Part shown: piece by piece, positions 3 to 20,375 of the stretch
Layout: each line of letters starts with the position of its first letter
How positions within the stretch are numbered: the first letter of the stretch is position 1
Origin: Gulosibacter sp. 10
GTDB lineage: Bacteria; Actinomycetota; Actinomycetes; Actinomycetales; Microbacteriaceae
Direction of reading: 5' to 3'
DNA length: 64,000 nt
Assembly (NCBI RefSeq): GCF_900163695.1
Contig: NZ_FUIC01000027.1
Span: 30,807-94,806 of the forward strand
The notes under the pieces: generated by a model
What the model saw: the letters and a program-made list of their open reading frames with translations, nothing else
The model's database searches: none
Told to the model about the DNA's origin: nothing
Translations under genes and position numbers: made by a program

Positions 3-545
3 GTGCTGCCGCCCGTGTACCAGGGGTTCGGCGGCGACCACGCGCGATACCCGTGGTCGATCATGATGCCGGGCGGCGAGGGGATCGCCGGTCACGTGCT
101 GGCGACGCTCGAACGGCTCGACGCGCTCGGCGTGCGCCGCGCCGTGCTCTTCAGCGGCCACTGCGCGCACGAGCAGCTCGAGCTGATCGACGACCTCGAG
201 CGGCGCTGGTCCGGGCTGACCGGCCGCGCGCTCGAGCTGACGGCCACCTCCGTGGACCGATGCGCATCGACGCCGATCGCGCCCGACCACGCGGGGCGCT
301 TCGAGACGACGCTGCTGGCCGGCATCGATCCCGGACTCGTCCATCTCGATCGGCTCCCGCGCGGCGCGGCGCCCGATCCCGACGAGGACCCGTACGGTGA
401 GAGCCGGTTCGCGCCGGGCCATCCGCTCCGGGGCATCCTCGGGGAGGACCCGCGGGACGCCGACCTCGCGGAGGGAGCGGCGCTGCTCGAACGGCTCGGC
501 GCCTGGCTCGCCGACATCGCGGAGCACGGAGGAGGAGCGGGATGA
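3..545 (+). CDS. creatininase-family (creatinine amidohydrolase/MftE-like) protein, 5'-truncated by window edge
   Basis: ORF runs from the window start to a stop at 545 (180 aa). Family assignment is by weak recall of creatininase-type C-terminal motifs. Coherent non-Arg-rich composition. Confidence 0.4.
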   Translation: MLPPVYQGFGGDHARYPWSIMMPGGEGIAGHVLATLERLDALGVRRAVLFSGHCAHEQLELIDDLERRWSGLTGRALELTATSVDRCASTPIAPDHAGRFETTLLAGIDPGLVHLDRLPRGAAPDPDEDPYGESRFAPGHPLRGILGEDPRDADLAEGAALLERLGAWLADIAEHGGGAG

Positions 546-1321
546 CGACCTGGGCGAGGTATCCGTACGAGGGGCGCGCCGTGCTGATCACGGGCGGCGG
601 CTCGGGGATCGGCAGGGCGATCGCCCGCGCCTTCCTCGAGCAGGGCGCGACCGTGGCCGTCTGCGGGCGGCGGCGCGAGCCGCTCGAGGAGACGCTCGCC
701 GGCGCCGAGGCCGGCCGCGGCATCGCGCTGGTCGGCGACATGGCCGAGGCGGACGAGATCGAGCGGGTGGTCGGCGAGGCGCGGGAGGCGCTCGGCGGCA
801 TCGACGTCGTGATCGCCAACGCGGGGCTCTCGGAGCCGGGCACCATCGAGGACCTCGACGAGGCCTCCTGGGAGCGGATGCGGTCGATCAACCTCGACGG
901 CCTCATCCGCCTCGCCCGGGCGACGGTCGGCGAGCTCCGCCGCACGAGCGGCGCGTTCATCGCCGTCTCGTCGATCGCCGGGCTCGGCGGAGACTGGAAC
1001 CAGACCGGCTACAACGCGACCAAGGGCGCCGTGAACACGCTCGTCCAGTCGATGGCGCTCGACCTCGGGCGCGACGGCGTGCGGGTGAACGCGATCGCGC
1101 CGGGTTTCACTACGACGAAGCAGACGCGGGAGCGGCTCGAGGATCCGGTGTTCTGGGAGCGGCTGCGCGACCGGCTCGCGCTCGATCGTGCCGGCGTGCC
1201 GGAGGACGTCGCGAAGGCCGCGCTCTTCCTCGCGAGCCCGGACGCGTCGTACATCACCGGCGCGGTGCTGCCGGTGGACGGCGGCGTCACCGCCTCCTGC
1301 GGCACGCCCCGCCCGCTCTGA
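542..1321 (+). CDS. SDR family NAD(P)-dependent oxidoreductase
   Basis: 259 aa. N-terminal TGGGSGIGRAIA Rossmann motif and NAG / YxxxK-type SDR motifs (YNATKGAV). ATGA overlap with the upstream ORF. Confidence 0.85.
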   Translation: MTTWARYPYEGRAVLITGGGSGIGRAIARAFLEQGATVAVCGRRREPLEETLAGAEAGRGIALVGDMAEADEIERVVGEAREALGGIDVVIANAGLSEPGTIEDLDEASWERMRSINLDGLIRLARATVGELRRTSGAFIAVSSIAGLGGDWNQTGYNATKGAVNTLVQSMALDLGRDGVRVNAIAPGFTTTKQTRERLEDPVFWERLRDRLALDRAGVPEDVAKAALFLASPDASYITGAVLPVDGGVTASCGTPRPL

Positions 1322-1995: not shown

Positions 1996-3417
1996 ATGAA
2001 ATTCGTCTCGACCCGTGGCCGGATGACCCCGGCCGGCTTCTCCGACGTCCTCCTCGACGGCCTCGCCTCCGACGGCGGGCTCGTGGTGCCGAGCGAGATC
2101 CCCGCCATCCCGGCCGAGCGGCTCGAGGAATGGCGCGCGCTGCGCTACCCCGAGCTCGCCCTCGAGATCATCGGGCTGTACGCGACGGACATCCCGCGGG
2201 AGGACCTCGAGCGGATCGTGCGGGCGGCGTACTCCGCCGAGCGGTTCGCCGCGCCCGAGACGGTGCCCGTGACCGACCTCGACGAGCGCATCTCGCTCGT
2301 GGGGCTCTCGGAGGGGCCGACCATGGCCTTCAAGGACCTCGCGATGCAGTTCCTCGGCGAGGTCATGCCGTACGTGCTGCAGCGCGCCGGACGCACCCTG
2401 AACATCCTCGGCGCGACCTCGGGCGACACCGGCTCGGCCGCCGAGCACGCGTTCAACGGCAAGGAGAACATCCGCGTCTTCATGCTCTCGCCGCAGGGGC
2501 GGATGAGCGCGGTGCAGCGCGCGCAGATGTACAGCCTCGACGACGAGAACATCCACAACATCGCCGTGGACGGCAACTTCGACGACTGCCAGAACCTCGT
2601 CAAGGCGATCAACGCCGATGCGGAGTTCAAGGCCTCCCACACGATCGGCGCCGTCAACTCGATCAACTTCGGCCGCATCTGCGCGCAGATCGTCTACTAC
2701 TTCTGGGCCTGGCTGCGGGCGACCGACGACGAATCCCGCCGCGAGGCGCCCGTCTCGTTCGCGGTGCCCTCCGGCAACTTCGGCAACATCTTCGCCGGCC
2801 ACCTCGCGCGGCGCATGGGGCTGCCCGTGCACCGCCTCGTGCTCGCGACGAATGAGAACAACGTGCTCGACGAGTTCTTCCGCACCGGCGTCTACCGGCC
2901 GCGCTCGCGCGAGCTCACCCTCGCGACGAGCAGCCCGTCCATGGACATCTCGAAGGCCTCGAACCTCGAGCGGTTCGTGCGCGAGCTCTTCGGCGAGGAC
3001 GCGGAGGGCTTCGCCGAGCGCTGGGCGGAGCTCGACCGCGAGGGCGTGCTCGACCTCTCGGATCAGCGCGAGGCGCTCGAGCGCGAGCACGGCTTCCTCA
3101 GCGGCACGAGCACCCACTGGGACCGGGTGAACACCATCCGGGCCGAGTTCGAGGCGAACGGGGTGATCGTCGACCCGCACACGGCCGACGGCCTCGCCGT
3201 GGCGCGCCGGCTGACCGACCTGCCCGGCCGCATCCTCGTGCTCGAGACGGCGAAGCCCGAGAAGTTCCGCGAGACGATCGAGGAGGCGCTCGGGGACCGG
3301 ACCCCGCCGCTGTCCGCGGAGCTGCTCGAGCTGCTCGAGCGGCCGCAGCGCACCGTGGACATCGAGAACTCGGCGGAGCAGCTGCGCGACTACATCGACG
3401 CGGCCTGCGAGCAGTAG
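1996..3417 (+). CDS. thrC: threonine synthase
   Basis: N-terminal MKFVSTRG signature typical of ThrC. PLP-fold residues (SGNFGN, TSGDTG). Start taken at the MKF methionine, index 5 of the listed ORF. Confidence 0.9.
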   Translation: MKFVSTRGRMTPAGFSDVLLDGLASDGGLVVPSEIPAIPAERLEEWRALRYPELALEIIGLYATDIPREDLERIVRAAYSAERFAAPETVPVTDLDERISLVGLSEGPTMAFKDLAMQFLGEVMPYVLQRAGRTLNILGATSGDTGSAAEHAFNGKENIRVFMLSPQGRMSAVQRAQMYSLDDENIHNIAVDGNFDDCQNLVKAINADAEFKASHTIGAVNSINFGRICAQIVYYFWAWLRATDDESRREAPVSFAVPSGNFGNIFAGHLARRMGLPVHRLVLATNENNVLDEFFRTGVYRPRSRELTLATSSPSMDISKASNLERFVRELFGEDAEGFAERWAELDREGVLDLSDQREALEREHGFLSGTSTHWDRVNTIRAEFEANGVIVDPHTADGLAVARRLTDLPGRILVLETAKPEKFRETIEEALGDRTPPLSAELLELLERPQRTVDIENSAEQLRDYIDAACEQ

Positions 3418-3447
3418 CCCGCCGGCAGCCCCGGCACGGCGACGCCG

Positions 3448-3490
3448 AAGGGGCCGGGACGTGAGAACCTCTCTCGCGTCCCGGCCCTTT
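3448..3490. terminator. GC-rich hairpin (14-bp stem AAGGGGCCGGGACG / CGTCCCGGCCCTTT) between convergent thrC and MFS genes
   Basis: Near-perfect inverted repeat seen directly. Followed by TTT on the + strand. Sits in the 86-bp convergent gap, consistent with a bidirectional terminator. Confidence 0.5.
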
Positions 3491-3503
3491 CGGCCTCTCG
3501 GGC

Positions 3504-4712
3504 TCAGGCCGTGGCAGGCGCGGCGGCGGCCCGGCGCTTCGGCGCCCACATGACGTACACCGAGGCGATGATCGAGACGACGAGCACGCACACGCTCACG
3601 ATGAGCATCGAGGTGAACTGGCCGCCCGAGCCGTCGATGAGGCCTCCGGCCACGAGCGGGCCGATCGCGAGTCCCGTGCCGATCATCAGGTTGGCCGCGT
3701 TCATGCCCTGCGGGCCGCCGACCTTCGAGACCGCCGACATGAGGAACGGCAGCAGCCAGCTCCACGCGAACTTGAACATCATCGCGGAGATGGCGAACAC
3801 GAACGCGGGCACGCCGCCGAGGAGCAGGAGGATGCTCGAGATCATCAGCCCGTAGCCGATGAGCACGAACCAGCGGTACAGCCTGTGCTCGCCGACGATC
3901 GTCGTGAGGAGCGCGGAGACCACGCCCACGAGCGTCGCGAGCGACAGCATCGTGGAGGCCTCGTCGAGGGTCGTGCCTCCGGCCACGGCCACGTCGGCCA
4001 TGTACGTCCACACGCCGCTGAGGCCGATGTAGAAGGTGAGCAGCGCGGCCATGCCGCCCAGGAGCGGGCCGATCTGCAGCGAGCCCGTGGCGGCCGGGGC
4101 CTCGGGCCGCGGCTCGCCGGCGGTCTCGGCCGAGGACCGGCCGCGGCGCAGCTCGTCGCCGCGGAGCAGCCAGGCGGCGGGGATGATGAGCACGCACAGC
4201 ACCACGAGCGTCCAGTAGATCGCCGAGACCGGCTGCGCCGAGAACAGCGCGGGGAAGATCGCGAGGATGAGCGCCCCCATCGCGAGCTGGGAGGCGACGA
4301 ACACCCCGTAGGCGCGACTGGGGTTCGCGGTCTTCGCGCTGATCGACAGCACGATCACCATCACCGAGCCGGCGCCCAGCGCGGTGAGCCCGCGGATCAC
4401 GACGAGCAGCGCGTAGCTGTCGATCATCGCGGTCACGGCGTTGCCGAGGATGACGATGCCGAGGCAGATGAGGCTGACGACCCGGAGGTCGGTGTTCCTC
4501 AGCCAGAGGAAGGCGGGGATGGTGGCGAGGCTGAAGCAGCCGAGCTCCACCGAGAACACGGCGCCCACCTGGAGGGCGTCGAGCGAGAACTGCTCGCCGA
4601 GCTTGGTCGCGATGACGGGCGCGACGAGCAGTACTGCGTTGAACACCGCGGAGAAGGCGGCGATGTAGCCGTAGGCCCTCCGGTCGGAGAGGCGGGGAGC
4701 GGTAGTGGTCAT
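3504..4712 (-). CDS. MFS transporter
   Basis: 402 aa, about 12 predicted hydrophobic helices. Typical MFS composition. Immediately downstream (11-nt gap) of the amidohydrolase gene on the same strand. Confidence 0.8.
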   Translation of the reverse strand: MTTTAPRLSDRRAYGYIAAFSAVFNAVLLVAPVIATKLGEQFSLDALQVGAVFSVELGCFSLATIPAFLWLRNTDLRVVSLICLGIVILGNAVTAMIDSYALLVVIRGLTALGAGSVMVIVLSISAKTANPSRAYGVFVASQLAMGALILAIFPALFSAQPVSAIYWTLVVLCVLIIPAAWLLRGDELRRGRSSAETAGEPRPEAPAATGSLQIGPLLGGMAALLTFYIGLSGVWTYMADVAVAGGTTLDEASTMLSLATLVGVVSALLTTIVGEHRLYRWFVLIGYGLMISSILLLLGGVPAFVFAISAMMFKFAWSWLLPFLMSAVSKVGGPQGMNAANLMIGTGLAIGPLVAGGLIDGSGGQFTSMLIVSVCVLVVSIIASVYVMWAPKRRAAAAPATA

Positions 4713-4722
4713 GGGAGAACTC

Positions 4723-6357
4723 CTAGGAGCGGTCGAAGACCTTCTCGCCCGCGAACCAGGTCTGCAGCGCCTGCGCCTGCAGCAGTTCGTCGAGTTCGCA
4801 GGTCATGGGGTCGAAGTCGAGCACGAGGAAGTCGGCGGACTTGCCGACGCTGATGCTGCCCGTGACGTCGTCGATGCCGAGCGCGCGGGCGGGGTTGATG
4901 GTGGCGAACTCGAGCGCCTCCTGGCGGGTGACCGCCTGCTCGGGCCAGAGGGCGCCGGGCATCGTGCGGGTCGGGTCCTGCCGGGTGATGAGCGAGTAGA
5001 TGGCGGGCCACGGGTCGGGGGAGACCGCCACGGGCCAGTCGGAGCCGGCAGCCACGAGCGCGCCGTGGTCCAGCAGGTCCCGGTTCGGCTGCACCTTGGC
5101 CGCCCGCTCGGCGGGCATCACGGATTTGAAGGACTCGGTGATGACGTTCGGGTACCAGAGCGCCGGGCTGATATCCGCGACGACGCCGAGCTCGCGGAAG
5201 CGGGGCAGATCGGAGGGCTCGATGAACTGCCCGTGGGCGATGTGATAGATCGGCTCGTGGTATCCCGCCCGGCGCACCTGCTCGACGGCGTCGAGCACGG
5301 CGCGCGCCGAGGCGTCGCCGGTGGCGTGGATCTTCGCGGAGATGCCGCGCTCGGCGGTCCTGAGCAGCCAGGACGCGAGGTCCTCCTGCGGCATCGTCAT
5401 GTAGCCGAAGTTGCAGTCCGAGCATCCCGAGTCGTCGAGATAGGGCTCGAGGAAGGCCGCCGTCTTCGCGGGCGGGACGCCGTCGAGGAAGATCTTGATG
5501 AAGTCGGGCCGGTGATGCGTGCTGCGGGTCTCCTCCATCGCGAAGATCACCTCCTCGCCGATGGGCTCGATGCCGAAGATGAACTCCTCGACCGGGCTCG
5601 CCGTGACCACCCAGGCCTTGAGCCGGCCGCGCTCGTCGAGCGACTGCAGCGCCTGCTGGGTCTGGAAGGAGGTCGCGGCGTCCTGGAAGGCGGTGATGCC
5701 GTAGCCGTGCAGCATCTCGATGGCCCGCTCGGAGGAGCGCTCGAGATCCTCGGACGAGAAGGGGGCGATGCGCTCGCGCGCCTTCTCGACCATCATGCCG
5801 CCGGCCTCGTAGAGGATGCCGGTCGCGCGGCCCTCCGCGTCGCGGGCGATCGAGCCGCCGCGGGGGTCGGGCGTGCCGTCGCCGATGCCGGCGATCTCGA
5901 GCGCGAGGCTGTTGGCCCAGCGGTTGTGCAGGCTGTCGTCGGTGAGCACGGCCGGATGGCCGTGGGCGACCTCGTCGAACCGGCGGAGCGCCTCGGGGGA
6001 GTCGAGCTCGGGGAAGAGCCCGGAGCCGACGGAGCCGCCGGTGATCCACGCGCCCTCGGGAAGCTCGCGGGCGTAGGCCTCGACGGCCTCGAACAGTGCC
6101 TCGGCCCCGAGCGTGGGGGCGGCCTTGAACTCGAAGAGGTCCTTGCGGCCGGCGATCATGTGGTGGTTGTGCACGTCGATGAGGCCGGGGATGACGGTGC
6201 GGCCGAGCAGGTCGACCCGTTCGTGGATGTCGGTCAGCCCGGCGACCTCGTCCTCGCCCACGGCGACGATGCGGCCGTCGCGGACGGCGAAGGTTGATGC
6301 GGTCGGCCGGTGCGCCTCGAGCGTGCGCACCGTTCCGTTCTCGAAAACTGTGGTCAT
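4723..6357 (-). CDS. amidohydrolase family metal-dependent hydrolase
   Basis: Amidohydrolase-3-like motifs (IPGLIDVHNHH near the N-terminus, HATGD, SDWPV). Start placed at the internal Met (MTTVFENG) because it is preceded by GAGGAA. The track ORF extends to 6414. Confidence 0.8.
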   Translation of the reverse strand: MTTVFENGTVRTLEAHRPTASTFAVRDGRIVAVGEDEVAGLTDIHERVDLLGRTVIPGLIDVHNHHMIAGRKDLFEFKAAPTLGAEALFEAVEAYARELPEGAWITGGSVGSGLFPELDSPEALRRFDEVAHGHPAVLTDDSLHNRWANSLALEIAGIGDGTPDPRGGSIARDAEGRATGILYEAGGMMVEKARERIAPFSSEDLERSSERAIEMLHGYGITAFQDAATSFQTQQALQSLDERGRLKAWVVTASPVEEFIFGIEPIGEEVIFAMEETRSTHHRPDFIKIFLDGVPPAKTAAFLEPYLDDSGCSDCNFGYMTMPQEDLASWLLRTAERGISAKIHATGDASARAVLDAVEQVRRAGYHEPIYHIAHGQFIEPSDLPRFRELGVVADISPALWYPNVITESFKSVMPAERAAKVQPNRDLLDHGALVAAGSDWPVAVSPDPWPAIYSLITRQDPTRTMPGALWPEQAVTRQEALEFATINPARALGIDDVTGSISVGKSADFLVLDFDPMTCELDELLQAQALQTWFAGEKVFDRS

Positions 6358-6625
6358 TGGTGTTCCTCGATGAGTGCGGATAGCGGCTGGTCGGCGCCGA
6401 GGCGCATCCGTCATGCGGAGCCTCGGAGCGAGCGTGCGTTGTGTCTACTAGTGGTTTACGAATGCTCCCATCAGTTGCTAACTGTTGGGGCCACCCTAGG
6501 CCGGACGGCGGGCGTCGGGAATACGGATGCGAATTCCAGACTCGCCGTCTGGTGATCGGAATCAGTGTTCGAATTCCGGATGCGCCCATCGCGCCCGCGA
6601 CTCGGGGCCGCGCGCGGCGCGCGCG

Positions 6626-7399
6626 TCAGGCGGGGAAGGAGGAGCGCCCGGTGTAGCCGAAGTCGGAGAGCAGGTTGACCCCGTTGACGGCTCGCGAGCG
6701 GGGGGATGCGAGATAGGCCACGCTCCACGCGATGTCCTCGGCGCTCTGCACCGGGTAGTCGACGTGCTCGAAGGACTCGACGCCGAGACCCTCTCTGGCC
6801 AGCGGCGTGTCGACGATGGAGGGGCAGACGCTGTTGACGCGGATGCCGTGCGCGTCGTGCAGCTCGACGGCCAGGGCCCTGGTGAGCTGGACCAGCGCGC
6901 CCTTGGAGGCGTTGTAGGCGAGCATCCCCGGCACGGAGACGAATCCCGAGTCGGAGCCGATCAGGACGACGCTGCCACAGGGCGACTCCTTGAGGAACGG
7001 GATCGCGGTCCGCACGGCGACGAACGCGCCCACGACGTTGACGTCGAGCACCTCGCGGAAGGAGTCCGTCGTGACCTCCTCGCAGGCGGCGCCCATCTCG
7101 CCGTCGATGCCGGCGGAGCAGACGAGCAGATCGATGCCGCCGAGCTCGTCGCCGAGATCGCGGACGGCCGCCGTCAGGGCGGACTCGTCGCCGACGTCGG
7201 CGGCTGCGGTGCGCACGTCCCCGGGCTCCCCGGCCAGCTCGGCCCGCGCGCGGGCGAGCCGTTCGTCGCTCCGTCCGATGATGCCCACGACGGCGCCCTC
7301 CGCGGCGTAGTGCCGGGCGACCGCCAGGCCGATGCCGGAGGAGCCGCCGGTCACGACGATGCGGCTCGGGGCGGTGGTGGTGTTCGCGAGTTCTGCCAT
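6626..7399 (-). CDS. SDR family oxidoreductase
   Basis: Start at Met index 96 of the track ORF (MAELANTT...) with an AAAGAGG RBS. The region upstream of that in the ORF is junk-like. TGGSSGIG and YNASKGAL SDR motifs. Confidence 0.8.
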   Translation of the reverse strand: MAELANTTTAPSRIVVTGGSSGIGLAVARHYAAEGAVVGIIGRSDERLARARAELAGEPGDVRTAAADVGDESALTAAVRDLGDELGGIDLLVCSAGIDGEMGAACEEVTTDSFREVLDVNVVGAFVAVRTAIPFLKESPCGSVVLIGSDSGFVSVPGMLAYNASKGALVQLTRALAVELHDAHGIRVNSVCPSIVDTPLAREGLGVESFEHVDYPVQSAEDIAWSVAYLASPRSRAVNGVNLLSDFGYTGRSSFPA

Positions 7400-7592
7400 C
7401 GGTCGGGCCTCTTTCTCGAATGCGTCCTCGTTGACGCGGATACCGTACCCACGTCCGGCGGGGGAAAAGGAATACGAGTTCATTGACCAGACTCCGAGTC
7501 TGATGAATAGACTCGTCTTCCGGACATCGGTCTCCGGGAACAGGATGGGTCCACGCCAGAAACGCTCGCGAAGGCTCCCGAAAGGAACCAGC

Positions 7593-9917
7593 ATGACCAA
7601 TCTCTCCCGCAACGAAGCGCTCGAGCTCGCAGCAGCGGCCCTGCCCTCATTCGGCCTCGCGCCCGACTCCGCCGTCGAGTTCGTCAAGTACCGCGAGAAC
7701 GTCGTCTTCCGCGTCGTCGACGGCGAGGACGCCTATGCGATGCGCGTGCACCGGCTCGATCACCGCACCGAGGCGGAGGTGCGGACCGAGAACGCCTACA
7801 TGCAGCGGCTCGGCGAGGCCGGATTCCCGGTGTCGGAGGTGGTGCCGGCGATCGACGGCGAGCTCTTCGCGGTCGTGGGCGACGGCCGCGGGCGCGAGCA
7901 CCAGATCGACGTGCAGCGCTGGGTCGCGCAGTCCGCGCCCCTGGGCGACATCGCGGAGGCCTGGGAGGGGACCGCCGAGCACGACCCGGAGTTCTTCGCG
8001 GAGCTCGGCGAGCTGTGCGGCGGCTTCCACGCCGTCTCGGCCGAGCTCGGCCGCATCCCGGGCTACTCCCGCAAGCCGTGGGACCTCGACGGCCTCACGG
8101 GAGCGGAGCCGCTCTGGGGCGACCCGCGCCGATTCGCCAAGACCGAGGAGGACCGGGCCGTCATCGACACCGCGCTCGCGAACGTCAGGGCTGAGCTCGA
8201 GGCGCTGGGCACGGGGCCGGAGGCGTACGGCGTCATCCACTCGGACTTCACGCCGGAGAACGTGCTGCTCTCGCCCGGCGGGATGACCCTCATCGACTTC
8301 GACGACTTCGGGGAGGGCTGGTGGCTCTTCGACCTGGCCACGGTGCTGTTCTGGTACCACTGGCATCCGCGCGGCGAGGAGTTCGCCGAGGCGCTCATCG
8401 AGGGTTACGAGCGGCGCTTCCCGATCCCCGAGGCCGCCCGCGCCGCGCTCGGGGGCCTCGTGGTGGCCCGCGCCCTCACCTACTTCGGCTGGGCGGCGGA
8501 CCGCCCCGGCGATGAGACCAGCGAGTTCCACCGCATCGAGCAGTACCCCGCGGTGCTCGAGCTGTGCCGCGAATACAACGACCGCCGGGCGGGCGACCGC
8601 GCCGGCGAGAACGGAGCAACGATGATGACCGACAGCAGCAACGACGACCTCATCGAGCGCCGCAACCGGACGCTCGGCCCCTATTCGCCGCTGTTCTACC
8701 GCGAGCCGCGCCACTTCGTCGAGGGCGACGGCGTATGGCTCACCGACGTGCACGGCGAGCGCTACCTCGACGCCTACAACAACGTGCCGCATGTCGGGCA
8801 CGCGAACCGCCGGGTCGCCGACGCGGCCGCCGAGCAGCTGCGCACCTACAACGTCCACACCCGCTACCTCAGCGAGCCGGTGGTGCGATACGCCGAGGAG
8901 CTGCTCGCCACCTTCGAGTCGCCGCTGGACCGGGTGTACTTCACCAACACGGGCTCCGAGTCGAACGAGCTCGCCCTGCGCATCGCCCGCCACCGCACCG
9001 GCAGCAGCGGCATCATCGTCACCGACCACAGCTATCACGGCAACACCATCACCCTGGCCGCGCTCACCACCGGGCTCCAGGTCTCGGAGCCGCGGGGCGC
9101 GAACATCCGCACGATCCACGTGCCCGACGCCTATGAGGGCGACGAGGCGCAGCTGCTCGAGGCGGCGCTGCGCGAGGTCGACGAGGCGATCGATTCGCTC
9201 GTGGCCGAGGGCTTCGGGGTCTCGGCGCTGCTGATCGAGCCCGTGTTCTCCACCGAGGGGCTGCCGACGGTGCCCGAGGGCTACCTCGCCGGGCTCGTCG
9301 ACCGGGTGCGCGCCGCGGGCGGGCTCATCATCTCCGACGAGGTGCAGGCCGGGCTCGGGCGGCTCGGCGACGACTGGTGGGCGCACCAGGCGACGGGCTT
9401 CGTGCCCGACCTCGTGACGCTCGGCAAGCCGCTCGGCAACGGCTACCCGCTCGGCGGGGTCGTGACCACCGAGGCGCTGCTCGACGACTTCAGCTCGCAG
9501 AACGAGTACTTCAACACGTTCGCCGGCACCCCGGCGGCGGCCGAGGCCGGGCGCGCCGTGCTCGCCGAGATCCGCGACCGCGACCTCGTGAACCGCACCG
9601 GGGAGCTCGGCCGGCACGTGTCCGAGCGGCTGCAGGACCTCGTCGCCCGGCATCCGAACGCGGCCGCGGCCAAGGGCCGCGGGCTGTTCTTCGGCCTCGC
9701 GATCGTGGATGCGCAGGGCCGCCCGGACGGCGCGCTCGCGAAGGAGATCGTCGAGCGCCTCGTCGCCCGGCGCATCCTCATCAGCAAGATCGGCCCCGCC
9801 GACAACGTGCTGAAGATCCGCCCGCCGATGGTCATCGAGCGCGAGGAGCTCGACCTGATCCTCGACGCCCTCGACGAGGCGCTCGCCGAGATCGAGCGCT
9901 CCGCCGCGCGCTCATGA
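7593..9917 (+). CDS. fusion protein: aminoglycoside-phosphotransferase (APH)/hydroxylysine-kinase-like kinase domain + class III (AGXT2-like) PLP-dependent aminotransferase/phospho-lyase domain
   Basis: 774 aa from the ATG at 7593 (AAAGGA RBS). N-terminal half has APH-fold motifs (HSDFTPENVLL, IDFDD). C-terminal half has the class III aminotransferase fold (SGSESNELA, DEVQAGLGRLG, TLGKPLGNGYPLG with the Schiff-base Lys). Confidence 0.8.
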   Translation: MTNLSRNEALELAAAALPSFGLAPDSAVEFVKYRENVVFRVVDGEDAYAMRVHRLDHRTEAEVRTENAYMQRLGEAGFPVSEVVPAIDGELFAVVGDGRGREHQIDVQRWVAQSAPLGDIAEAWEGTAEHDPEFFAELGELCGGFHAVSAELGRIPGYSRKPWDLDGLTGAEPLWGDPRRFAKTEEDRAVIDTALANVRAELEALGTGPEAYGVIHSDFTPENVLLSPGGMTLIDFDDFGEGWWLFDLATVLFWYHWHPRGEEFAEALIEGYERRFPIPEAARAALGGLVVARALTYFGWAADRPGDETSEFHRIEQYPAVLELCREYNDRRAGDRAGENGATMMTDSSNDDLIERRNRTLGPYSPLFYREPRHFVEGDGVWLTDVHGERYLDAYNNVPHVGHANRRVADAAAEQLRTYNVHTRYLSEPVVRYAEELLATFESPLDRVYFTNTGSESNELALRIARHRTGSSGIIVTDHSYHGNTITLAALTTGLQVSEPRGANIRTIHVPDAYEGDEAQLLEAALREVDEAIDSLVAEGFGVSALLIEPVFSTEGLPTVPEGYLAGLVDRVRAAGGLIISDEVQAGLGRLGDDWWAHQATGFVPDLVTLGKPLGNGYPLGGVVTTEALLDDFSSQNEYFNTFAGTPAAAEAGRAVLAEIRDRDLVNRTGELGRHVSERLQDLVARHPNAAAAKGRGLFFGLAIVDAQGRPDGALAKEIVERLVARRILISKIGPADNVLKIRPPMVIEREELDLILDALDEALAEIERSAARS

Positions 9918-10537
9918 CTCCCTCGGCAGCCGGTCCCGGCACCGGCGGCGTGCCGCTGTCGCTGCGCGAGCGCCAGCTGCAGCGGACCCGCGAGGACCTC
10001 ATCCGCGCGACGATCGACGTCATCGCGGAGGTGGGGCTCGAGCAGGCGACCGTGCAGCGCATCACCGCGCGGGCCGGGACGTCGCGGGCGACGCTCTACG
10101 CGCATTTCCCCGATGGCCGGGACGACCTGTACGCCCAGGCGTACCGGGCGCTGGGGCGCGGGCTCATCCAGCGCTCGGAGCAGCTCGCGTCGGAGTGCGA
10201 GACGAGCGTGGACCGGCTGTGCGCCTACACGCAGGCGATGATCGAGCTCGCCGCGCAGCGGCAGCTCGGCCTGTTCTACAACGTCTCGGGGCCGCGGCTC
10301 GCGGGCATGAAGTTCCGCGGCAGCGGCTCGCAGCGGACGCTGGACGCCTTCATCGTGGAGCTGAAGGGGGCGCAGGAGCGCGGCGAGATCGCGGAGTCGC
10401 TCGACATCGAGGCCGTCTCGGCCCTGCTGGTCGGGGCCATCCGCGAGACCGGCATCGATACGGCGCGCAATCCGTCGGTCGCGCGCCGCTCCCTCGCGGC
10501 CTTCCGGCAGCTGATCGAGGCGCTCTGGAACCGATGA
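9914..10537 (+). CDS. TetR/AcrR family transcriptional regulator
   Basis: ATG at 9914 overlaps the stop of the fusion gene (ATGA). N-terminal HTH (LEQATVQRITARAGTSRATLYAHF). Confidence 0.8.
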   Translation: MTPSAAGPGTGGVPLSLRERQLQRTREDLIRATIDVIAEVGLEQATVQRITARAGTSRATLYAHFPDGRDDLYAQAYRALGRGLIQRSEQLASECETSVDRLCAYTQAMIELAAQRQLGLFYNVSGPRLAGMKFRGSGSQRTLDAFIVELKGAQERGEIAESLDIEAVSALLVGAIRETGIDTARNPSVARRSLAAFRQLIEALWNR

Positions 10538-10550
10538 GCCGGCCGCGGCG

Positions 10551-11090
10551 TCACAGCGCCGCCAGCGCGGCGACCGCGTCCCGGACGAGGGCGCGGTCGG
10601 GCGGAGCGGACTGCAGCGTGCGGTGGATCGTCCAGCCCTCGATGAGCGCGTCGATCGCCACGCGAGCCCGCTCGCCGAAGTGGGGCGCGAGCGACTCGTA
10701 GCTGCGCGCGATCAGCTCGGCGGCCATCGTCCCGACGGCCTCGTCGTGGCCCGCGTACGCGTACATCTCGTAGATCAGCTGCTGATCGCCGCGGTCCGCG
10801 ACCTCCGGGCCGCAGATGATCGTGGTCACCGCCTCGACGGCGCCCTCGCGGTCGAGCGTCTCGGGGAGCAGGGCGGCGTAGCGCGAGGCGAGGGTGTCGC
10901 CGAGCAGCGCGAAGGCGCGCTCCAGGATCTCCTGCAGATCGGCGAAGTGGTACGTGCACAGCCCCGGCGAGACGCCGGCCGCGGCGGCGATCTTCCGATG
11001 TGTGGTCTTGTGCACGCCCTCGGCGGCGATGACCTCGAGCGCGCCGTGCAGGATCGCGGTCGGGCCCTCCGGCTGGGGATTGGCGGGCAT
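10551..11090 (-). CDS. TetR/AcrR family transcriptional regulator
   Basis: 179 aa. HTH TTHRKIAAAAGVSPGLCTYHF. Divergent from the MFS gene at 11222. Confidence 0.8.
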   Translation of the reverse strand: MPANPQPEGPTAILHGALEVIAAEGVHKTTHRKIAAAAGVSPGLCTYHFADLQEILERAFALLGDTLASRYAALLPETLDREGAVEAVTTIICGPEVADRGDQQLIYEMYAYAGHDEAVGTMAAELIARSYESLAPHFGERARVAIDALIEGWTIHRTLQSAPPDRALVRDAVAALAAL

Positions 11091-11148
11091 CGTCCTCCTC
11101 GGGTGCGTCCTCCGCCGGCGGCGGAAGGGGTTCTCCCGAAGGGTAGTG

Positions 11149-11181
11149 CCTGTACAGTTGTCCAGGCTGTACTGACGTACA
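11149..11181. promoter_or_regulatory. candidate TetR operator: palindromes CTGTACAG and TGTAC-N4-GTACA in the divergent tetR/MFS intergenic region
   Basis: Self-complementary 8-mer at 11150-11157 and an inverted repeat at 11168-11181, seen directly. Position between divergent regulator and transporter genes is typical of TetR operators. Confidence 0.35.
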
Positions 11182-11221
11182 ACGCCTGTCCGGGCCGCGC
11201 CCCTCGACGATCGGAGCCGAT

Positions 11222-12385
11222 TTGGAGTTCACGCCGCACGTCCGCCGCAACGCCGTCTTCGCGCTGTTCATGATCCCCGGGCTCGCGCTGTCCACCTGGG
11301 TGACGCGCACGCCGGACATCCGGGATCTCGTCGGCGCGAGCACCGCGGAGATGGGGCTCATCCTGTTCGGGCTGTCGATCGGCTCCATGATCGGCGTGCT
11401 CTGCTCCGCGCCGCTCGTGCGACGGTTCGGGACGAGGTCGGTGATCGGCGCCGGGACGACGCTGGTCGTCGCCGGCCTGGCCGGCATCGGCCTCGCGGCG
11501 GCGCTCGCCTCGGGGCCGCTCGTCGCGGCTGCGCTGATGCTGTTCGGCCTGGGCATGGGCGGCGGCGAGGTCGCCATCAACGTGGAGGGCGCCGACGTCG
11601 AGCGGGCGCTCCGGCGGCCGGCCATGCCCGCGATGCATGGCATGTTCAGCGTGGCGGTCACCATCGGCGCCTCGCTCGGCATCCTCGGCAACGCGCTGCG
11701 GGTGCCCATCGCCGTGCACACGGCGGTGCTCGCCGCGGTGTCGGCGCTCGTGCTCGTCGCCGCGCTGCGCCGGGTGCCGCCGGGCACGGGGCGCGCCGGC
11801 CGGAACTCGATGCCAGGGGGCTCCCGCTCGCTCCTCCGGGAGCGCGCACTGCTGCTCATCGGCGTCGTGGTGCTCGCGATGGCCTTCACCGAGGGCGCCG
11901 CCAATGACTGGCTGCCGCTCATCCTCGTCGACGGCCACGGATTCAGCGCGACCGCCGGCGCCTTGGCCTACGCGGGGTTCGCAGCGGCGATGGCGATCGG
12001 GCGGTTCGCGGCAGGGCCCCTGCTGCGTCGGTTCAGCAGGGCCGCGGTGGTGCGCTCGAGCGCGCTCGCAGGCGCGGTCGGCCTCGTGCTGGTCATCTTC
12101 GCGGAGTGGCCGCCCGCGGTGCTGTTCGCCGTGCTGCTGTGGGGCCTTGGCGCCTCGGTCGGCTTCCCTGTCGCGATGTCCGCGGCGGGGGATTCCGGGC
12201 CGGACCCCACCGCCCGGGTGTCGCTCGTTGCGACGGTGGGCTACATCGCGTTCCTGGTCGGACCGCCGGCGCTGGGATTCCTGGGGGAGGCGTTCGGGCT
12301 GCGGCCGACGATGCTCGTGATCGTGGCGCTCCTCGGACTGGCCTTCCTCGCGGCCTCCGCGGTGGGGCGCGGGCGGAAGGATTGA
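11222..12385 (+). CDS. MFS transporter
   Basis: 387 aa, multi-helix hydrophobic protein. Divergent from a TetR gene. Confidence 0.8.
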   Translation: MEFTPHVRRNAVFALFMIPGLALSTWVTRTPDIRDLVGASTAEMGLILFGLSIGSMIGVLCSAPLVRRFGTRSVIGAGTTLVVAGLAGIGLAAALASGPLVAAALMLFGLGMGGGEVAINVEGADVERALRRPAMPAMHGMFSVAVTIGASLGILGNALRVPIAVHTAVLAAVSALVLVAALRRVPPGTGRAGRNSMPGGSRSLLRERALLLIGVVVLAMAFTEGAANDWLPLILVDGHGFSATAGALAYAGFAAAMAIGRFAAGPLLRRFSRAAVVRSSALAGAVGLVLVIFAEWPPAVLFAVLLWGLGASVGFPVAMSAAGDSGPDPTARVSLVATVGYIAFLVGPPALGFLGEAFGLRPTMLVIVALLGLAFLAASAVGRGRKD

Positions 12386-12400
12386 CCTCGGCCTCCCAGA

Positions 12401-12434
12401 GAGTTAGGGTCACCTTAGTTATTGGCCCTAACTC
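12401..12434. promoter_or_regulatory. 9-bp inverted repeat GAGTTAGGG-N16-CCCTAACTC immediately upstream of the tetR-irtA-irtB module
   Basis: Seen directly in the 58-bp gap between the MFS stop (12385) and the TetR start (12444). Weak (11/19) similarity to an IdeR box only. More consistent with a TetR-type operator. Confidence 0.35.
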
Positions 12435-12443
12435 GGGAGGCGC

Positions 12444-13142
12444 GTGGTGACGAACATCGGCGGGAGACCGCGTCGCATCGATCGGCGGGATATCCTCCGC
12501 GTCGGTCTCGGCATCGGACTCCGGGACCTCAGCCTCAACGCCGTGGCCTCAGCGCTCGGCGTCTCCGCGGCGGCGCTGTACCGGCACGTGGACGGGCGAT
12601 GGGGGCTCGAGCAGCTGGTGGGGGAGCACCTGCTCGCCGAGCTGCGCCTGCCCGACGACCCGGAGCGGGACGCGGCGGGGCACCTCGTCGACTTCGGGCT
12701 CGCGCTGCGCGAGTCCGTGCTCGGCCATCCCGGCCTCGCCGCGTACCTGCAGACGCTCTTCCCGCGCGGGGACGGCGGCCGGGCGCTGCTCGTCGCCGAG
12801 ATCGAGGCGCTCGGCCGCCGCGGCTACGCGCCGGCGACCGCGCTGGTGCTCGCGAGCGCCGTCGCCTCGCACACCATCGGCTACGCCGCCGGCGAGGAGA
12901 TCCAGCGGGATCGGGGCGCGGAGCTCGAGCAGCACCGCGATCGCGTGCTGTCCGGGATCATGGCCGACGAGCGGCTCCAGCTCGCGCACACCGACCTGCC
13001 GCAGGTCGACTCGGCGGGCTATTTCCGGCTCGTGCTCATGGCGGTGGTCGACGGGCTCGTGGCCGCCGCGCCGAAGGATCGATCCGTGCACGAGGTGGTG
13101 GCCGCGCTCGAGGCGCGCCACTGCCGAGAGGCGGTGCGCTGA
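12444..13142 (+). CDS. TetR-like transcriptional regulator
   Basis: GTG start preceded by [28 protein letters not shown]. Its stop overlaps the irtA-like start (ATGA at 13140-13144). Confidence 0.7.
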
Positions 13143-15829
13143 TGGCGAAGCGGGGCTTCCAGGGCGCGATCATGCGCGGCTTCGGCGCCCGCGACCACAT
13201 CGCGGTCGTCACGGGCAGGGAGTACCTCGCCGAGCACTTCGTGCGCGTGCGCATGACCTCCGAGACGCTCTTCGACGAGGCGGTGACGGGGCCGGCGGCC
13301 TGGGCCCGCTTCTGGTTCCCCGACCCCGACGGGGGCGAGGCCGAGTACCAGCGCGGCTACACCTTCAGCGAGGCCGATGCGGCCACCGGCGAGTTCGCCG
13401 TCGACTTCGTCCTGCACGAGCCCGCCGGCCCGGCCTCGATCTGGGCCAGGACGGCCGAGCCGGGCTCGGCCGTGCCGGTGCAGGCCGTCGCGACCACCCG
13501 ATTCGACCTCCCGGCCGAGACGCCCGAGGGGTTCCTGCTCATCGGCGACTCCGCGTCGATCCCGGCCATCGGCGGGATCCTCGAGGCGCTGCCCCGAGAC
13601 GTCCCGGTCGAGGTGTACCTCGAGCAGCACGAGGACGCGGACGCGACGATCCCGCTGCCGCGGCATCCCCTCGCGCGCATCCACCGACTGCCGCGGGAGG
13701 GCGCCGACTCGCTGGCCCGCGGCATCGAGGCGCGCGACTGGTCCAACTGGTACGCCTGGATCACGCCGGAGTCCGGCTCCCTCAAGCACCTGCGCACCCG
13801 GCTCCGCGACGAGTTCGGGTTCCCGAAGTCGGAGATGCACCCCCAGGCGTACTGGATCGAGGGCCGCTCCATGGGGAAGATGCGCAACGAGGACGCCGCG
13901 GATGCGGTGCCCGCGGCCGCATCCGTGTCCGAAACCGCGACCGTTCCCGGCGTCGCCGCGGGGGCCGACGGCGCGCGATCGCCCGAGCCGCAGCCCGAGT
14001 CCCGGCCACAGCCCGAGCCCGCCGCCTCCGCGCCCAGGGGCGAGTGGCGGGCGAACGCGGCCGGGCGGCTGCTCGCGCCCCTGCGGATCACCTTCTGGCT
14101 CGCGGGGATCCTGCAGGGCATCGTCACGCTCGTCGAGCTCGCGCCCTTCGTCCTGCTCGTCGAGCTGTCGCGGCTGCTGCTCGAGGGCGCCGAGCCCGCG
14201 CGGCTCTGGACGGTGGGCCTGTGGGCGGCGGGGCTCATGGCCGCGGGCGCGCTGTGCTCGGCGGGGCTGCTCCTCTGGCTCCACGCGGTGGATGCGCGGC
14301 TCTCGAGGGACCTCCGCCGCCGACTGCTCGGCAAGACGGCCCGCCTGCCGCTCGGCTGGTTCGACGCGCGAGGATCGGGCGGGGTCAAGCAGCTCATGCA
14401 GGACGACACGCTGTCGCTGCACTACCTCGTGACCCACGCGGTGCCGGACGCCGTCGCCGCGGCGCTCGCGCCGATCGCCGTGCTGGTGTACCTCTTCGTC
14501 GTCGACTGGCGGCTCGCGCTCGTCCTGCTCGTGCCGGTGCTCGTCTACGTCGTGACGATGTACGGCATGATCGTGCGCAGCGGGACGCGGACGCGCCAGG
14601 CGGTGGCCTGGTCCGAGCGCATGAACGAGGAGGCCGGCGCGTACCTCGAGGGGCAACCCGTGGTCCGCGTCTTCGGCGGGGCCGCGGCCTCCGGCTTCCG
14701 AGCGGCGCTGGGGGAGTACATCCGCTTCCTCGACGCCTGGCAGCGGCCCTTCACCGGGCAGAAGACGGTCATGGACCTCGCGACCCGCCCGGCGACCTTC
14801 CTGCTGCTCATCCTCGGGGTCGGCGCCCTGCTCGTGACCGGCGGCTCGATGGATCCCATCGCGCTCCTGCCCTTCCTGTTCCTCGGGACCACCTTCGGCG
14901 CGCGGCTCCTCGGCATCGGCTACGGACTCTCGGGGCTTCGGGAGGGGCTGCTCGCGGCCAAGCGCATCCAGGTGGTTCTCGACGAGCCCGAGCTCGAGAC
15001 CCGTCCGGCGGAGGCGCCCGCGGCGAAGGGGCCCGTGGGCGAAACGGCCCCGGGGCTCGTGGAGTTCGAGGGCGTCGGATTCGCCTACCGCCCCGGGGCG
15101 CCGGTGCTGCAGGGCATCGATCTGCGGCTCGAGCCGGGCACCGTCACCGCGCTCGTCGGCCCGTCCGGCGCGGGCAAGTCCACCCTGGCCGCCCTCCTCG
15201 CGCGCTTCCACGACCCCGTCGACGGCGCCATCCGCGTCGGCGGCGCGGACCTCCGCGAGCTCGGCGCCGACGAGCTGTACTCCCGCGTGGGCTTCGTCTT
15301 CCAGCAGACGCAGCTCGTCCGCGGCACGGTGCGGGAGAACATCGCCCTCGCCGTCCCCGACGCCGACGACGACCGGGTGGTCGCGGCGGCGCGGGCCGCG
15401 AACATCCACGAGCGGATCCTGCGCCTCCCGGACGGGTACGAGACGGAGCTCGGCCCCGGAGCCGCGCTCTCCGGCGGCGAGCAGCAGCGGCTCACCATCG
15501 CCCGGGCGATCCTCGCCGACTCGCCGGTGCTCGTCCTCGACGAGGCGACCGCGTTCGCCGACCCCGAGTCCGAGCACCTCGTGCAGCAGGCGCTGAGCCG
15601 CCTCACCGCCGGTCGCACGGTGCTCGTCATCGCCCACCGGCTGCACACGATCACCCGCGTCGACCGGATCGCCGTGCTCGAGGAGGGGCGCCTCGTCGAA
15701 TCCGGGACGCACGACGAGCTGCTCCGGCGCGACGGCACCTACCGCAGACTCTGGCACGCCGGCGGCTACGAGGAGCGCCCCGCCCGGGCATCCGAGCCGG
15801 CGGCCACCGGGAAGGAGACCCGCGCATGA
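13142..15829 (+). CDS. irtA: IrtA-like siderophore importer subunit: N-terminal siderophore-interacting (FAD-binding, ViuB/SIP-like) domain fused to ABC exporter-fold transmembrane domain and ATPase
   Basis: 895 aa. N-terminal about 250 aa has the SIP/FAD-binding RxYT motif (QRGYTFSE). A six-helix TMD follows. C-terminal NBD has Walker [10 protein letters not shown], the LSGGEQQR signature and Walker B VLVLDEAT. Confidence 0.85.
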
Positions 15830-17559
15830 TCCGGACGTTCCTCGACCTGCTGCCGAGCGGCAGCCGCGCGCGCCTCGCAGCGCACCTGGCACTGACCCTG
15901 CTGAGCGTCGCGCTGCGCGCCGCCGGCATCGTGCTCCTGGTGCCCGCCCTCGCCGCGCTGTTCGGCCCCGAGCCCGCAGGAGCCTGGCCGTGGATCGGCG
16001 CACTGGCGGCCGCGACCGTCGCGGGCTGGATCGTCGACTGGGTCGTGGCCCGCATCGGCTTCGACCTCGGCTTCGGACTCCTCGAGCACGGGCAGGCCGC
16101 CGTCGCGGAGCGCATCGCCCGAATCCGGCTCGGCTGGTTCGACGTCGAGCATGCGGCGGCCGCGCGACGCGCCGTGGCGGCCACCGGCCCGGAGCTCGTC
16201 GGGCTCATCGGCTATCTCGTGACCCCGCTGCTCAGCGCCGTGCTGCTGCCGATCGCGATCGGGGTCGCGCTCCTCCCGATCGCGTGGCCGCTGGGCGTCG
16301 CCGCGCTCATCGGCGCACCGCTCCTGCTCGGCGCCTTCTGGGCCTCCTCCGCCCTCGGCCGGCGGGCGGACGCCGAGGCGGCGGCGACGAACAGCGATCT
16401 CACCGAGCGGATCGTCGAATTCGCCAGGGTGCAGCAGGCGCTGCGGGCCTCGCGTCGGGTCGAGCCGGCGCGCAGCAGCGCGGGCGAGGCGCTCGCCCGC
16501 CAGCACGGGGCCGGCATGCGCCTGCTCCTGATGCAGGTGCCGGGGCAGATCGTCTTCAGCCTCGCGACGCAGCTCGCGCTGATCGTCCTGGCCGGCACGA
16601 CCGTGCTGCTCACCACCGGCGGAGCCGTGAGCATCCCCGAGGCGATCGCGCTCATCGTCGTGATCGTCCGCTACCTCGACCCGTTCCTCTCGCTGGGCGG
16701 GCTCGCCCCCGGCCTCGAGTCGGCCTCGCGCACGCTGCGCGACATCGGGCGCGTGCTCGACGCCGAGCCGGTGCGCGAGGGCGCCGAGCGCGTGCCGGCC
16801 GCCGACGCCCCCGCGATCGAGCTCCGGGGGGTCGGGTTCCACTACGGCGACCCGGCGCAGCCCGTGCTGGAAGGGCTCGACCTCCGGATCGAGGCGGGCA
16901 CGACCACCGCGATCGTCGGCCCCTCCGGCTCGGGCAAGAGCACCGTCCTGGCGCTCATCGCGGGCCTGCACGAGCCGACCTCGGGGCGGGTGCTGGTGGA
17001 GGGCGTCGACCTCGCCGCCCTCGATGCGGGCAGCCGCGCCGCGCTCATCACCATGGTCTTCCAGCAGCCCTTCCTCTTCGACGGCACGATCCGCGAGAAC
17101 GTGCTCGTCGGCGCCCCGGGCGCCCGGGAGGCCGCGCTCGAGCACGCCGCACGGCTCGCCCGCGTGGATGCGGTCGTCGCGGGCCTGCCCCGCGGCTGGG
17201 AGACGCGTACGGGCGAGGGTGGCGCATCGCTCTCCGGCGGGGAGCGGCAGCGCGTCTCCATCGCGCGGGCGCTGCTCAAGCCGGCGCCCGTCCTGCTCGT
17301 GGACGAGGCGACCAGCGCGCTCGACACCGAGAACGAGGCGGCCGTGGTGGCCGCGCTGGAGGAGGACCCCAGGCGCCGCACCCGGGTGATCGTCGCCCAC
17401 CGGCTCGAGAGCGTCCGGCGCGCGGACCGGGTCCTGTTCCTCGAGGAGGGCCGGATCGTGGAGGACGGGCCGGTGGAGGCGCTCCTGCGGGCGAGCGGTC
17501 GGTTCGCCGAGTTCTGGCGGCGGCAGGACGCGGCCTCGGGGTGGCGGATCCGCGACTAG
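15826..17559 (+). CDS. irtB: IrtB-like ABC transporter permease/ATP-binding subunit
   Basis: 577 aa. ATG overlaps the irtA-like stop (ATGA) and is preceded by GAAGGAG. TMD plus NBD ([28 protein letters not shown]). Confidence 0.85.
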
Positions 17560-17596
17560 GCCGTTCCTCCGTCCTTCCGCCGCGCCTCGGCGCCGC

Positions 17597-20293: not shown

Positions 20294-20375
20294 CCGGGGA
20301 TGGATTCGGCTCCAGCGCCGTGCCGCTGGAGCCGAATCCGGTTCTTCGACGGGGCCCGCTCCCGTCCGCGCGCGG

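Follow-up and report, generated by a model that had tools for sequence, protein, structure and literature searches.

We analysed a 64,000-nucleotide stretch of Gulosibacter sp. 10 DNA (contig NZ_FUIC01000027.1, positions 30,807 to 94,806 of the forward strand; hereafter the window), with attention to one gene that encodes a kinase fused to a pyridoxal phosphate (PLP)-dependent phospho-lyase (Table 1). As the original prediction, made from the sequence alone, had claimed, positions 7593..9917(+) form a single open reading frame (ORF) of 774 uninterrupted codons followed by TGA, in which a kinase is joined to a class-III aminotransferase-fold enzyme. Pfam placed APH (PF01636) in the N-terminal third at 1.6e-25 (90.7 bits, cut-off 23.2) and Aminotran_3 (PF00202) in the C-terminal half at 9.1e-67 (225.9 bits, cut-off 30.5). 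The sequence details cited in that prediction were all recovered: HSDFTPENVLL at residues 216-226, IDFDD at 234-238, an intact Schiff-base lysine (K612) within LGKPLGNG, and the ATGA overlap with the downstream TetR-family gene at 9914-9917. The longest ORF of the frame begins at ATG 7332, with which it runs into the divergent gene for a short-chain dehydrogenase/reductase (SDR), whose own ATG is at 7399. In an alignment of 16 full-length homologues, by comparison, M1 of ATG 7593 is an invariant column, and all 16 start at the equivalent Met. For both reasons the start at 7332 was rejected and ATG 7593, preceded by GAAAGGAA, was taken as the true one. The GC content of the window is 72.7%, and at such high GC long open frames arise by chance. 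Since the fusion frame shows a clear codon signature (GC of 0.94 at third codon positions, GC3, and 0.47 at second positions, GC2) together with strong profile matches, we regard it as a real gene and not as a GC artefact. The antisense ORF 7647..9653(-), of 668 amino acids (aa), failed the GC3/GC2 coding filter and is apparently a by-product of the high GC. An identical protein is encoded on an independent public contig (P0001).

Table 1. Genes, domains and sequence elements of the window, in order of position (SDR, short-chain dehydrogenase/reductase; MFS, major facilitator superfamily; pLDDT, predicted local confidence of the AlphaFold model)
Feature	Position (nt)	Strand	Evidence or remark
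Second SDR	542..1321	+	NCBIfam meso-2,3-butanediol dehydrogenase BudC, 271.7 vs 270 bits cut-off; not conserved with the cassette
MFS transporter, putative substrate importer	3504..4712	-	Pfam MFS_1; 10 bp downstream of the amidohydrolase gene
Amidohydro_3 (YtcJ-like) metal-dependent hydrolase, accessory cassette member	4723..6414	-	Pfam 1.6e-92
SDR, divergent from the fusion gene, proposed amino-ketone/amino-alcohol dehydrogenase	6626..7399	-	NCBIfam and PDB matches: secondary-alcohol-type SDRs
Imperfect palindrome, 53 bp, candidate TetR operator	7469..7521	.	26-nt arms, 81% complementary; divergent SDR/fusion intergenic region
Fused kinase and phospho-lyase gene	7593..9917	+	774 aa and stop; Pfam APH and Aminotran_3; full-length homologues at 47-72% identity
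APH-family small-molecule kinase domain, residues 1 to ~336	7593..8600	+	Pfam; 6EF6 1.2e-30; pLDDT ~90
Kinase catalytic loop H216-x-D218-x4-N223	8238-8270	+	
Kinase Mg site D235-F-D237	8292-8306	+	
Inter-domain linker, residues ~337-367	8601..8693	+	pLDDT <50 at residues 338-367; ATGATG inside
PLP-dependent phospho-lyase domain (class-III aminotransferase fold)	8694..9914	+	5G4I 4e-147; 6TOR 1.8e-83
PLP lysine K612	9426-9428	+	Lyase domain; D582 also key residue
NVLK741-I-R743-PP motif	9804-9827	+	Lyase domain
TetR-family regulator	9914..10537	+	Pfam TetR_N; ATGA overlap, translationally coupled to the fusion gene
Second TetR	10551..11090	-	Divergent from the second MFS; no recurrence with the kinase-lyase cassette
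Second MFS	11222..12385	+	Not part of the conserved cassette
Ammonium transporter	20711-22108	-	
Enterochelin-esterase-like gene	22658-23950	-	

The C-terminal 431 residues were searched against all solved structures, using HMMER alignments. The best match was 5G4I/5G4J, the Arthrobacter aurescens protein A1RDF1, deposited as 'phospholyase / putative aminotransferase class III protein' (493.5 bits, 4e-147), followed by 6TOR, the human ethanolamine-phosphate phospho-lyase ETNPPL (283.8 bits, 1.8e-83), which converts phosphoethanolamine into acetaldehyde, ammonium and phosphate (PMC8233209). All other solved matches, which were racemases, transaminases or decarboxylases, scored at most 156.8 bits, the transaminases reaching about 1e-44 or weaker. 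Thus the domain groups with phospho-lyases, at 493 and 284 bits against no more than 157, and not with the classical transaminases that had been named as the alternative outcome. By tblastn it is 53% identical to A1RDF1 over 422 residues and 37% identical to ETNPPL, and in a neighbour-joining tree it falls inside the actinobacterial clade of A1RDF1, in another sub-clade than A1RDF1 itself. We take A1RDF1 to be an O-phosphoethanolamine phospho-lyase; it was reportedly the subject of a phospho-lyase study by Cuetos et al. in 2016.

The residues expected of such an enzyme were conserved throughout the aligned lyase sets (76-77 sequences, including the A1RDF1 and human ETNPPL references). K612, which forms the Schiff base, and D582, the aspartate facing the pyridine nitrogen, were invariant in 77 of 77 sequences, whereas further towards the C-terminus K741 was found in all 76 sequences aligned there and R743 in 75 of them. 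The window lyase shares NNV-x-HVGH and NVLK-x-(R/K)-PP with both A1RDF1 and ETNPPL, and further motifs with A1RDF1. The second of these reads NVLKIRPP in the window, NVLKMRPP in A1RDF1 and NVLKIKPP in ETNPPL, so that in all three a Lys replaces the Arg of acetylornithine aminotransferase 8HT2 (NIIRLTPPL). We take the basic pair K741/R743 to be a signature of the phospho-lyase clade, and it may bind the phosphate of the substrate. Every sequence test that was run places the lyase half within the ETNPPL/A1RDF1 clade.

The kinase half belongs to the APH family (PF01636), membership being established at this general level. Searched against solved structures, residues 1-346 matched best to 6EF6 (1.2e-30), the next relatives being amicoumacin kinases (3.8e-14 and 3.9e-9). 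H216, D218, N223, D235 and D237 align with IHADLRLANLL / IDFDD of 6EF6 and are invariant in the 16 homologues; the catalytic Asp (D218), whose loss had been considered as grounds for doubt, and the Mg-binding Asp residues are all present. The 6EF6 sequence was rebuilt from the alignment and then used to find its gene. It proved 97% identical to a phosphotransferase of Mycolicibacterium smegmatis, the gene for which sits between microcompartment shell genes and an SDR gene. The same locus encodes an APC permease, a class-III aminotransferase-fold protein and an aldehyde dehydrogenase. This RMM locus has been described (PMC4207490), and according to a title cited in PMC8007038 its kinase was published as an (S)-1-amino-2-propanol kinase.

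In order to place the window among related loci, one genome per species was scanned with a profile of the kinase domain, which yielded 80 loci, nearly all assigned to Actinomycetota; neighbouring genes were called, then compared by tblastn and clustering, and families were assigned by Pfam and NCBIfam. A lyase homologue lay within 8 kb of the kinase in about 70 of the 80 loci. Kinase and lyase formed one ORF in 17 loci, namely the window and 16 scanned genomes from Arthrobacter, Paeniglutamicibacter, Zafaria, Citricoccus and several metagenome-assembled genomes. Separate genes, adjacent or divergent, were found in Microbacterium, Leucobacter, Leifsonia, Agrococcus, Subtercola, Streptomyces, Modestobacter, Nocardia and others. 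As to conservation of the fusion across Microbacteriaceae, which the original prediction had proposed to check, the scanned representatives of that family carry separate, adjacent genes, and the named fused genomes of the scan are all Micrococcaceae. The nearest homologues of the window protein are likewise from Micrococcaceae, with at best 66% identity in the kinase and 75% in the lyase.

Several gene families also recurred beside the pair. An APC-type permease was present in 44 loci, a cluster of SDRs in 41, a TetR in 28 or more, Amidohydro_3 in 24, a copper amine oxidase in 18, a FeaR-like regulator in 16, and an aldehyde dehydrogenase in 13, with four further loci in which the lyase is itself fused to an aldehyde dehydrogenase. 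An orthologue of A1RDF1 (92% identity) was found in Arthrobacter oryzae (L049), where its gene is divergent from a kinase gene and has a permease and an SDR orthologue following it. A1RDF1, solved as an 'orphan' phospho-lyase, thus belongs to the kinase-lyase locus type, and this orthologue's locus resembles that of the window in having a kinase, a permease, an SDR and a TetR. The two differ in that A1RDF1 is a stand-alone protein of 446 residues whose gene is divergent from a separate kinase gene, whereas in the window the kinase is part of the same polypeptide.

The closest relatives of the window protein (64-68% full-length identity) share its exact cassette, with transporter, Amidohydro_3 and SDR genes on one strand, and on the other the fusion gene followed by a TetR gene overlapping its stop codon; a more distant fused homologue (48% identity) has a different gene context. 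Of the 16 fused loci in other genomes, 14 have a TetR orthologue (53-66% identity) after the fusion gene. Orthologues of the divergent SDR, 56-71% identical, stand beside the pair in many of the 41 SDR-cluster loci, and the protein itself has only generic secondary-alcohol SDR matches in PDB and NCBIfam. Amidohydro_3 occupies the same operon position in L004, L010 and L011, and MFS orthologues (47-48% identity) the same position in L009, L010 and L011, the APC-family permease taking the place of the MFS in most other loci. Palindromes comparable in length to that of the window were found at the same place in two of the four loci examined (L010 and L006, not L004 and L012). A promoter and terminator scan of 3300-11300 gave nothing above chance, and an Rfam scan of the whole window gave no match. 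All the flanking genes listed in the original prediction were found. Its view of a dedicated catabolic island stood for those that recur, namely the neighbouring SDR, the amidohydrolase, the transporter and the TetR with the overlap; it did not stand for the second SDR, the second TetR and the second MFS, which lie outside the conserved cassette.

One assignment of that prediction, aldehyde/alcohol redox for the SDR, had to be revised. An orthologue of the SDR co-occurs with lyase-aldehyde-dehydrogenase fusions in L021, L050 and L052, and its being kept where the lyase already carries an aldehyde dehydrogenase argues against a role as a mere aldehyde sink. A step upstream of the kinase, between an amino ketone and an amino alcohol, is more likely.

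The linker between the two domains bears traces of how the fusion may have arisen. It reads …GENGATMMTDSSNDD…, and its M344-M345 are encoded by ATGATG at 8622-8627, with GGAG 6 nt before ATG 8622. This ATGATG sits exactly where unfused relatives begin their lyase gene; the unfused lyases of L018 and L019 start with MSTTPDD and MTTPSSD at the equivalent point. Where relatives have the two genes unfused, the stop of the kinase overlaps or adjoins the start of the lyase; those of L007 overlap and are read in different frames. In the neighbour-joining tree of lyase domains the window falls inside a single fused clade, whose unfused sisters are Micrococcoides (L019) and a Micrococcaceae metagenome-assembled genome (L018). 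One member of this clade, from Citricoccus sp. (L007), is split again, and the Paeniglutamicibacter proteins L003 and L071 make up a separate fused group, which indicates at least two fusion events. Derivation from two adjacent, overlapping genes appears to be the best explanation of the fusion. The ATGATG with its GGAG looks like a fossil of the former separate lyase start, and possibly some free lyase is still made by internal initiation there.

AlphaFold was run on the full protein with the 16 homologues, as a monomer model. The kinase was predicted with a pLDDT of about 90, the linker (338-367) with less than 50, and the overall predicted template modelling score (pTM) was 0.51; several segments of the lyase had low confidence, which is to be expected when a dimeric fold is modelled as a monomer. 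The channelled chemistry that the original prediction had read into the fusion is not supported, since in this model the linker is disordered and the positions of the domains are undefined. The model is compatible with a flexible tether and offers no support for a structured channel.

Fusion of these two enzymes is by no means confined to the loci surveyed. A search of the full protein against 1.84 billion cluster representatives gave 1807 matches below 1e-30, and of the best 150, 114 were longer than 700 aa (64 at 701-880 aa and 50 at 881-1120 aa). When 45 representatives longer than 520 aa were sampled from these 150, 41 had both APH and Aminotran_3, and 17 also had a central Peptidase_M23. 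Proteins of the APH / Peptidase_M23 / Aminotran_3 type (~970-1050 aa; P0263, P0276, P0288 and others) account for about one third of the top 150. In NCBIfam the window protein matched best to PRK06148 and PRK06149 (~970-1030 aa; 1.6e-138 and 5.8e-110), which have the same order, with the kinase N-terminal and the lyase C-terminal, and whose lyase halves are ~34-41% identical to that of the window. They carry an inserted M23 peptidase-like domain, whereas the window protein has only a ~30-residue linker and gave no Pfam match to Peptidase_M23. It falls far below both cut-offs (463.4 against 1128 bits and 368.8 against 973 bits), and only positions ~41-302 and 578-1012 of the profiles are covered, leaving their middle unmatched.

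The architecture being so widespread among cluster representatives, its novelty was overrated in the original prediction. In the abstract of a 2012 paper, Veiga-da-Cunha et al. reportedly named bacterial 'bi- or tri-functional' APH-AGXT2L fusions as what led them to propose, and then demonstrate, the activities of AGPHD1, AGXT2L1 and AGXT2L2. Where a 2025 review cites this work, it does so as a case of function discovery from a gene fusion with both partners uncharacterised (PMC12138971). The kinase-lyase fusion and its pathway were therefore already known, and the inference drawn here for the window is the 2012 argument in reverse. In vertebrates, HYKK/AGPHD1 together with ETNPPL (AGXT2L1) or PHYKPL (AGXT2L2) follows the same logic, phosphorylation and then PLP-dependent elimination of phosphate and ammonia, but there kinase and lyases are separate proteins, while the window has one polypeptide. 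An older bacterial precedent is said to have been given by Jones, Faulkner and Turner in 1973, who reportedly described an amino alcohol kinase and an amino alcohol O-phosphate phospho-lyase in Erwinia and Pseudomonas. The same two steps are said to turn ethanolamine and 1-aminopropan-2-ol into acetaldehyde and propionaldehyde there, by two separable activities and in Proteobacteria; to our knowledge the genes of this route were never assigned.

The window was also compared with the M. smegmatis RMM locus, an aminoacetone / (S)-1-amino-2-propanol microcompartment locus (kinase structure 6EF6; Mallette and Kimber 2018). This locus contains the same families as the kinase-lyase loci, namely an APC permease, an SDR, an APH-family kinase and a class-III aminotransferase-fold enzyme, but its genes are unfused and its regulator is a GntR, whereas the window cassette has a fusion and a TetR. 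Its aminotransferase-fold protein has RVLQFKPG in place of NVLK-x-R-PP, and the divergent SDR of the window, considered as an aminopropanol dehydrogenase of the M. smegmatis type, was rejected as such at only 33% identity. Microcompartment shell genes were absent both from the window and from the 80 loci in a tblastn search with five M. smegmatis shell or shell-associated proteins. Because kinase, lyase and SDR are only 26-33% identical, the RMM pathway is an analogue and not an orthologue; it remains the best functional analogue of the window system.

Taken together, these findings suggest that the gene encodes a bifunctional catabolic kinase-lyase in a TetR-controlled cassette, with ethanolamine and/or 1-aminopropan-2-ol as the likeliest substrates, a reading to which we give a probability of roughly 0.75. 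In such a pathway the transporter would import the amino alcohol or a precursor of it. With ATP as the donor, the APH-family kinase would phosphorylate a small vicinal amino alcohol at its hydroxyl, which is next to the amine-bearing carbon. The PLP domain would then, through K612, engage the O-phospho-amino alcohol by its amino group as an external aldimine, take the alpha proton and eliminate phosphate, and the released enamine would be hydrolysed to an aldehyde (acetaldehyde or propanal) and ammonium. The divergent SDR probably acts before the kinase, because its orthologue is kept beside lyase-aldehyde-dehydrogenase fusions and an equivalent set of genes is present at the analogous M. smegmatis locus; most likely it interconverts an amino ketone and an amino alcohol, for example aminoacetone to 1-aminopropan-2-ol. 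Amidohydro_3 may cleave an N-acylated or cyclic precursor and so supply the amine, which is the weakest step of the proposal. The translationally coupled TetR would control the cassette, probably through the 53-bp palindrome in the divergent promoter region, and the fusion would tether both activities through the flexible linker.

Several observations weigh against this proposal. The lyase is only 53% identical to A1RDF1, so its specificity may differ. The recurrent APC permease scored 54.9 bits against the ethanolamine permease model, whose cut-off is 381.75, and no aldehyde dehydrogenase adjoins the cassette in the window. Amidohydro_3 is limited to about 30% of the loci (24 loci), and neither PDB nor NCBIfam holds a characterised close relative of it, the solved relatives being uncharacterised. 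Orthology to the RMM pathway had to be rejected (kinase 27%, lyase 26% and SDR 33% identity, and no shell genes), and no fixed interface or geometry between the two domains can be read from the AlphaFold monomer model at its pTM of 0.51. Finally, no assay or characterisation of this protein or of any fused bacterial homologue was found in the full-text literature, outside which most subscription journals lie.

Other substrates for the same chemistry have to be considered. An undescribed amino-alcohol or amino-ketone conjugate (N-acyl, N-formyl, or a cyclic carbamate or amide), in place of ethanolamine or aminopropanol, is in our view an unlikely substrate of the operon; if it were the true one, the recurrent, independent fusion would point to selection for passing on a phosphoester intermediate that is labile or toxic. 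We consider it quite improbable that the substrate is a hydroxy-amino acid, for example 5-hydroxylysine, or else a larger compound resembling an amino-polyol or amino sugar, supplied by the amidohydrolase and, elsewhere, by a neighbouring sugar-type ABC transporter. The commonest neighbouring transporter does belong to an amino-acid permease family, in about 12 loci Amidohydro_3 adjoins a sugar-type ABC transporter (Peripla_BP_4, BPD_transp_2 and an AraG-like ATPase), the vertebrate paralogue PHYKPL reportedly uses 5-phosphohydroxylysine, and the amicoumacin kinases, second-best among solved relatives of the kinase, have a large substrate. Yet most loci lack the module of ABC transporter and amidohydrolase, small secondary-alcohol dehydrogenases are what the conserved SDR resembles, and the best kinase relative comes from an amino-propanol microcompartment locus; moreover, A1RDF1, the sole tested member of the actinobacterial clade, was deposited as a phospholyase and presumably acts on phosphoethanolamine.

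The chemistry itself might also be different. Were the C-terminal domain a true aminotransferase, acting on the amine that the kinase phosphorylates or on another one, it would pass the amino group to a keto acid with no elimination of phosphate, and its fold, all its PLP-binding residues of the class-III type and the label 'aspartate aminotransferase family protein' that homologues bear in public records would be in keeping with this. We hold it to be highly improbable in view of the A1RDF1 score, which lies about 340 bits above that of any transaminase, of K741, present across the whole clade, A1RDF1 and ETNPPL where 8HT2 has its conserved Arg, and of A1RDF1, which is said to be devoid of transaminase activity. 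That the kinase modifies an antibiotic of the aminoglycoside or amicoumacin type, and serves resistance or detoxification instead of nutrition, seems scarcely credible: across 80 genomes its linkage is to a phospho-lyase, permeases, an SDR, an amine oxidase and an aldehyde dehydrogenase, a setting of catabolic type, which outweighs APH family membership and weak similarity to kinases for amicoumacin, hygromycin and corramycin (3.8e-14 to 7e-3). Nearby TetR-MFS pairs do resemble efflux modules, but the one at 10551..12385 is not conserved with the cassette. The chance that an assembly or sequencing artefact, for example a frameshift, joined two genes is negligible. Close relatives (L007, L018 and L019) do have two overlapping genes, and the linker does hold a vestigial start with a GGAG motif; against this, the fused ORF is uninterrupted in 16 independent genome assemblies and many metagenomic proteins, an identical protein occurs on an independent contig, and fused proteins form coherent clades.

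If the catabolic kinase-lyase is what the cassette encodes, it would constitute a candidate route of amino-alcohol catabolism in these soil bacteria, in which a kinase and a phospho-lyase make amino alcohols available as a supply of carbon and nitrogen independently of B12 and of microcompartments, and the freed phosphate could be reused. The survey points to the kinase-lyase pair as a standard, apparently TetR-regulated locus across Actinomycetota that includes A1RDF1 and was fused at least twice, and it places a structure solved as an orphan in its genomic setting. The fused enzyme could possibly also serve as a one-protein biocatalyst or as a biosensor module for amino alcohols.

Some of the surveyed loci deserve mention on their own account. 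Fusion of the same lyase to an aldehyde dehydrogenase (~930-1020 aa), with a separate kinase nearby, was seen in Geodermatophilus, Amycolatopsis and Streptomyces (L021 3611-6676, and also L041, L050 and L052; proteins P0069, P0084 and P0097), an alternative fusion partner within the same pathway. Zafaria cholistanensis (L006) has a second lyase-like gene at 11681-12937(-), ~1.4 kb downstream of the fused gene, with no kinase fused to it or directly beside it; its product has an NVLKVKPP motif and, at 41.6%, the highest identity to human ETNPPL of all loci. Kinase-lyase loci are often flanked by genes for a copper amine oxidase, for an AraC regulator of the FeaR-like type and for a BetI-type TetR (L012, L014-L017, L024, L039, L055, L059, L064, L067 and others), which suggests a larger amine-utilisation island in many Actinomycetota; none of the three adjoins the cassette in the window.

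Elsewhere in the window, a creatininase-family ORF (3-545), cut by the window start, precedes the second SDR. The second TetR and the second MFS, a divergent pair, have the look of a common efflux module. Beyond it, 12422-23950, which includes the enterochelin-esterase-like gene and the ammonium transporter, has the appearance of a siderophore-handling region, in which a siderophore-interacting FAD-binding reductase and an ABC exporter lie in one long frame, probably several genes merged by ORF calling.

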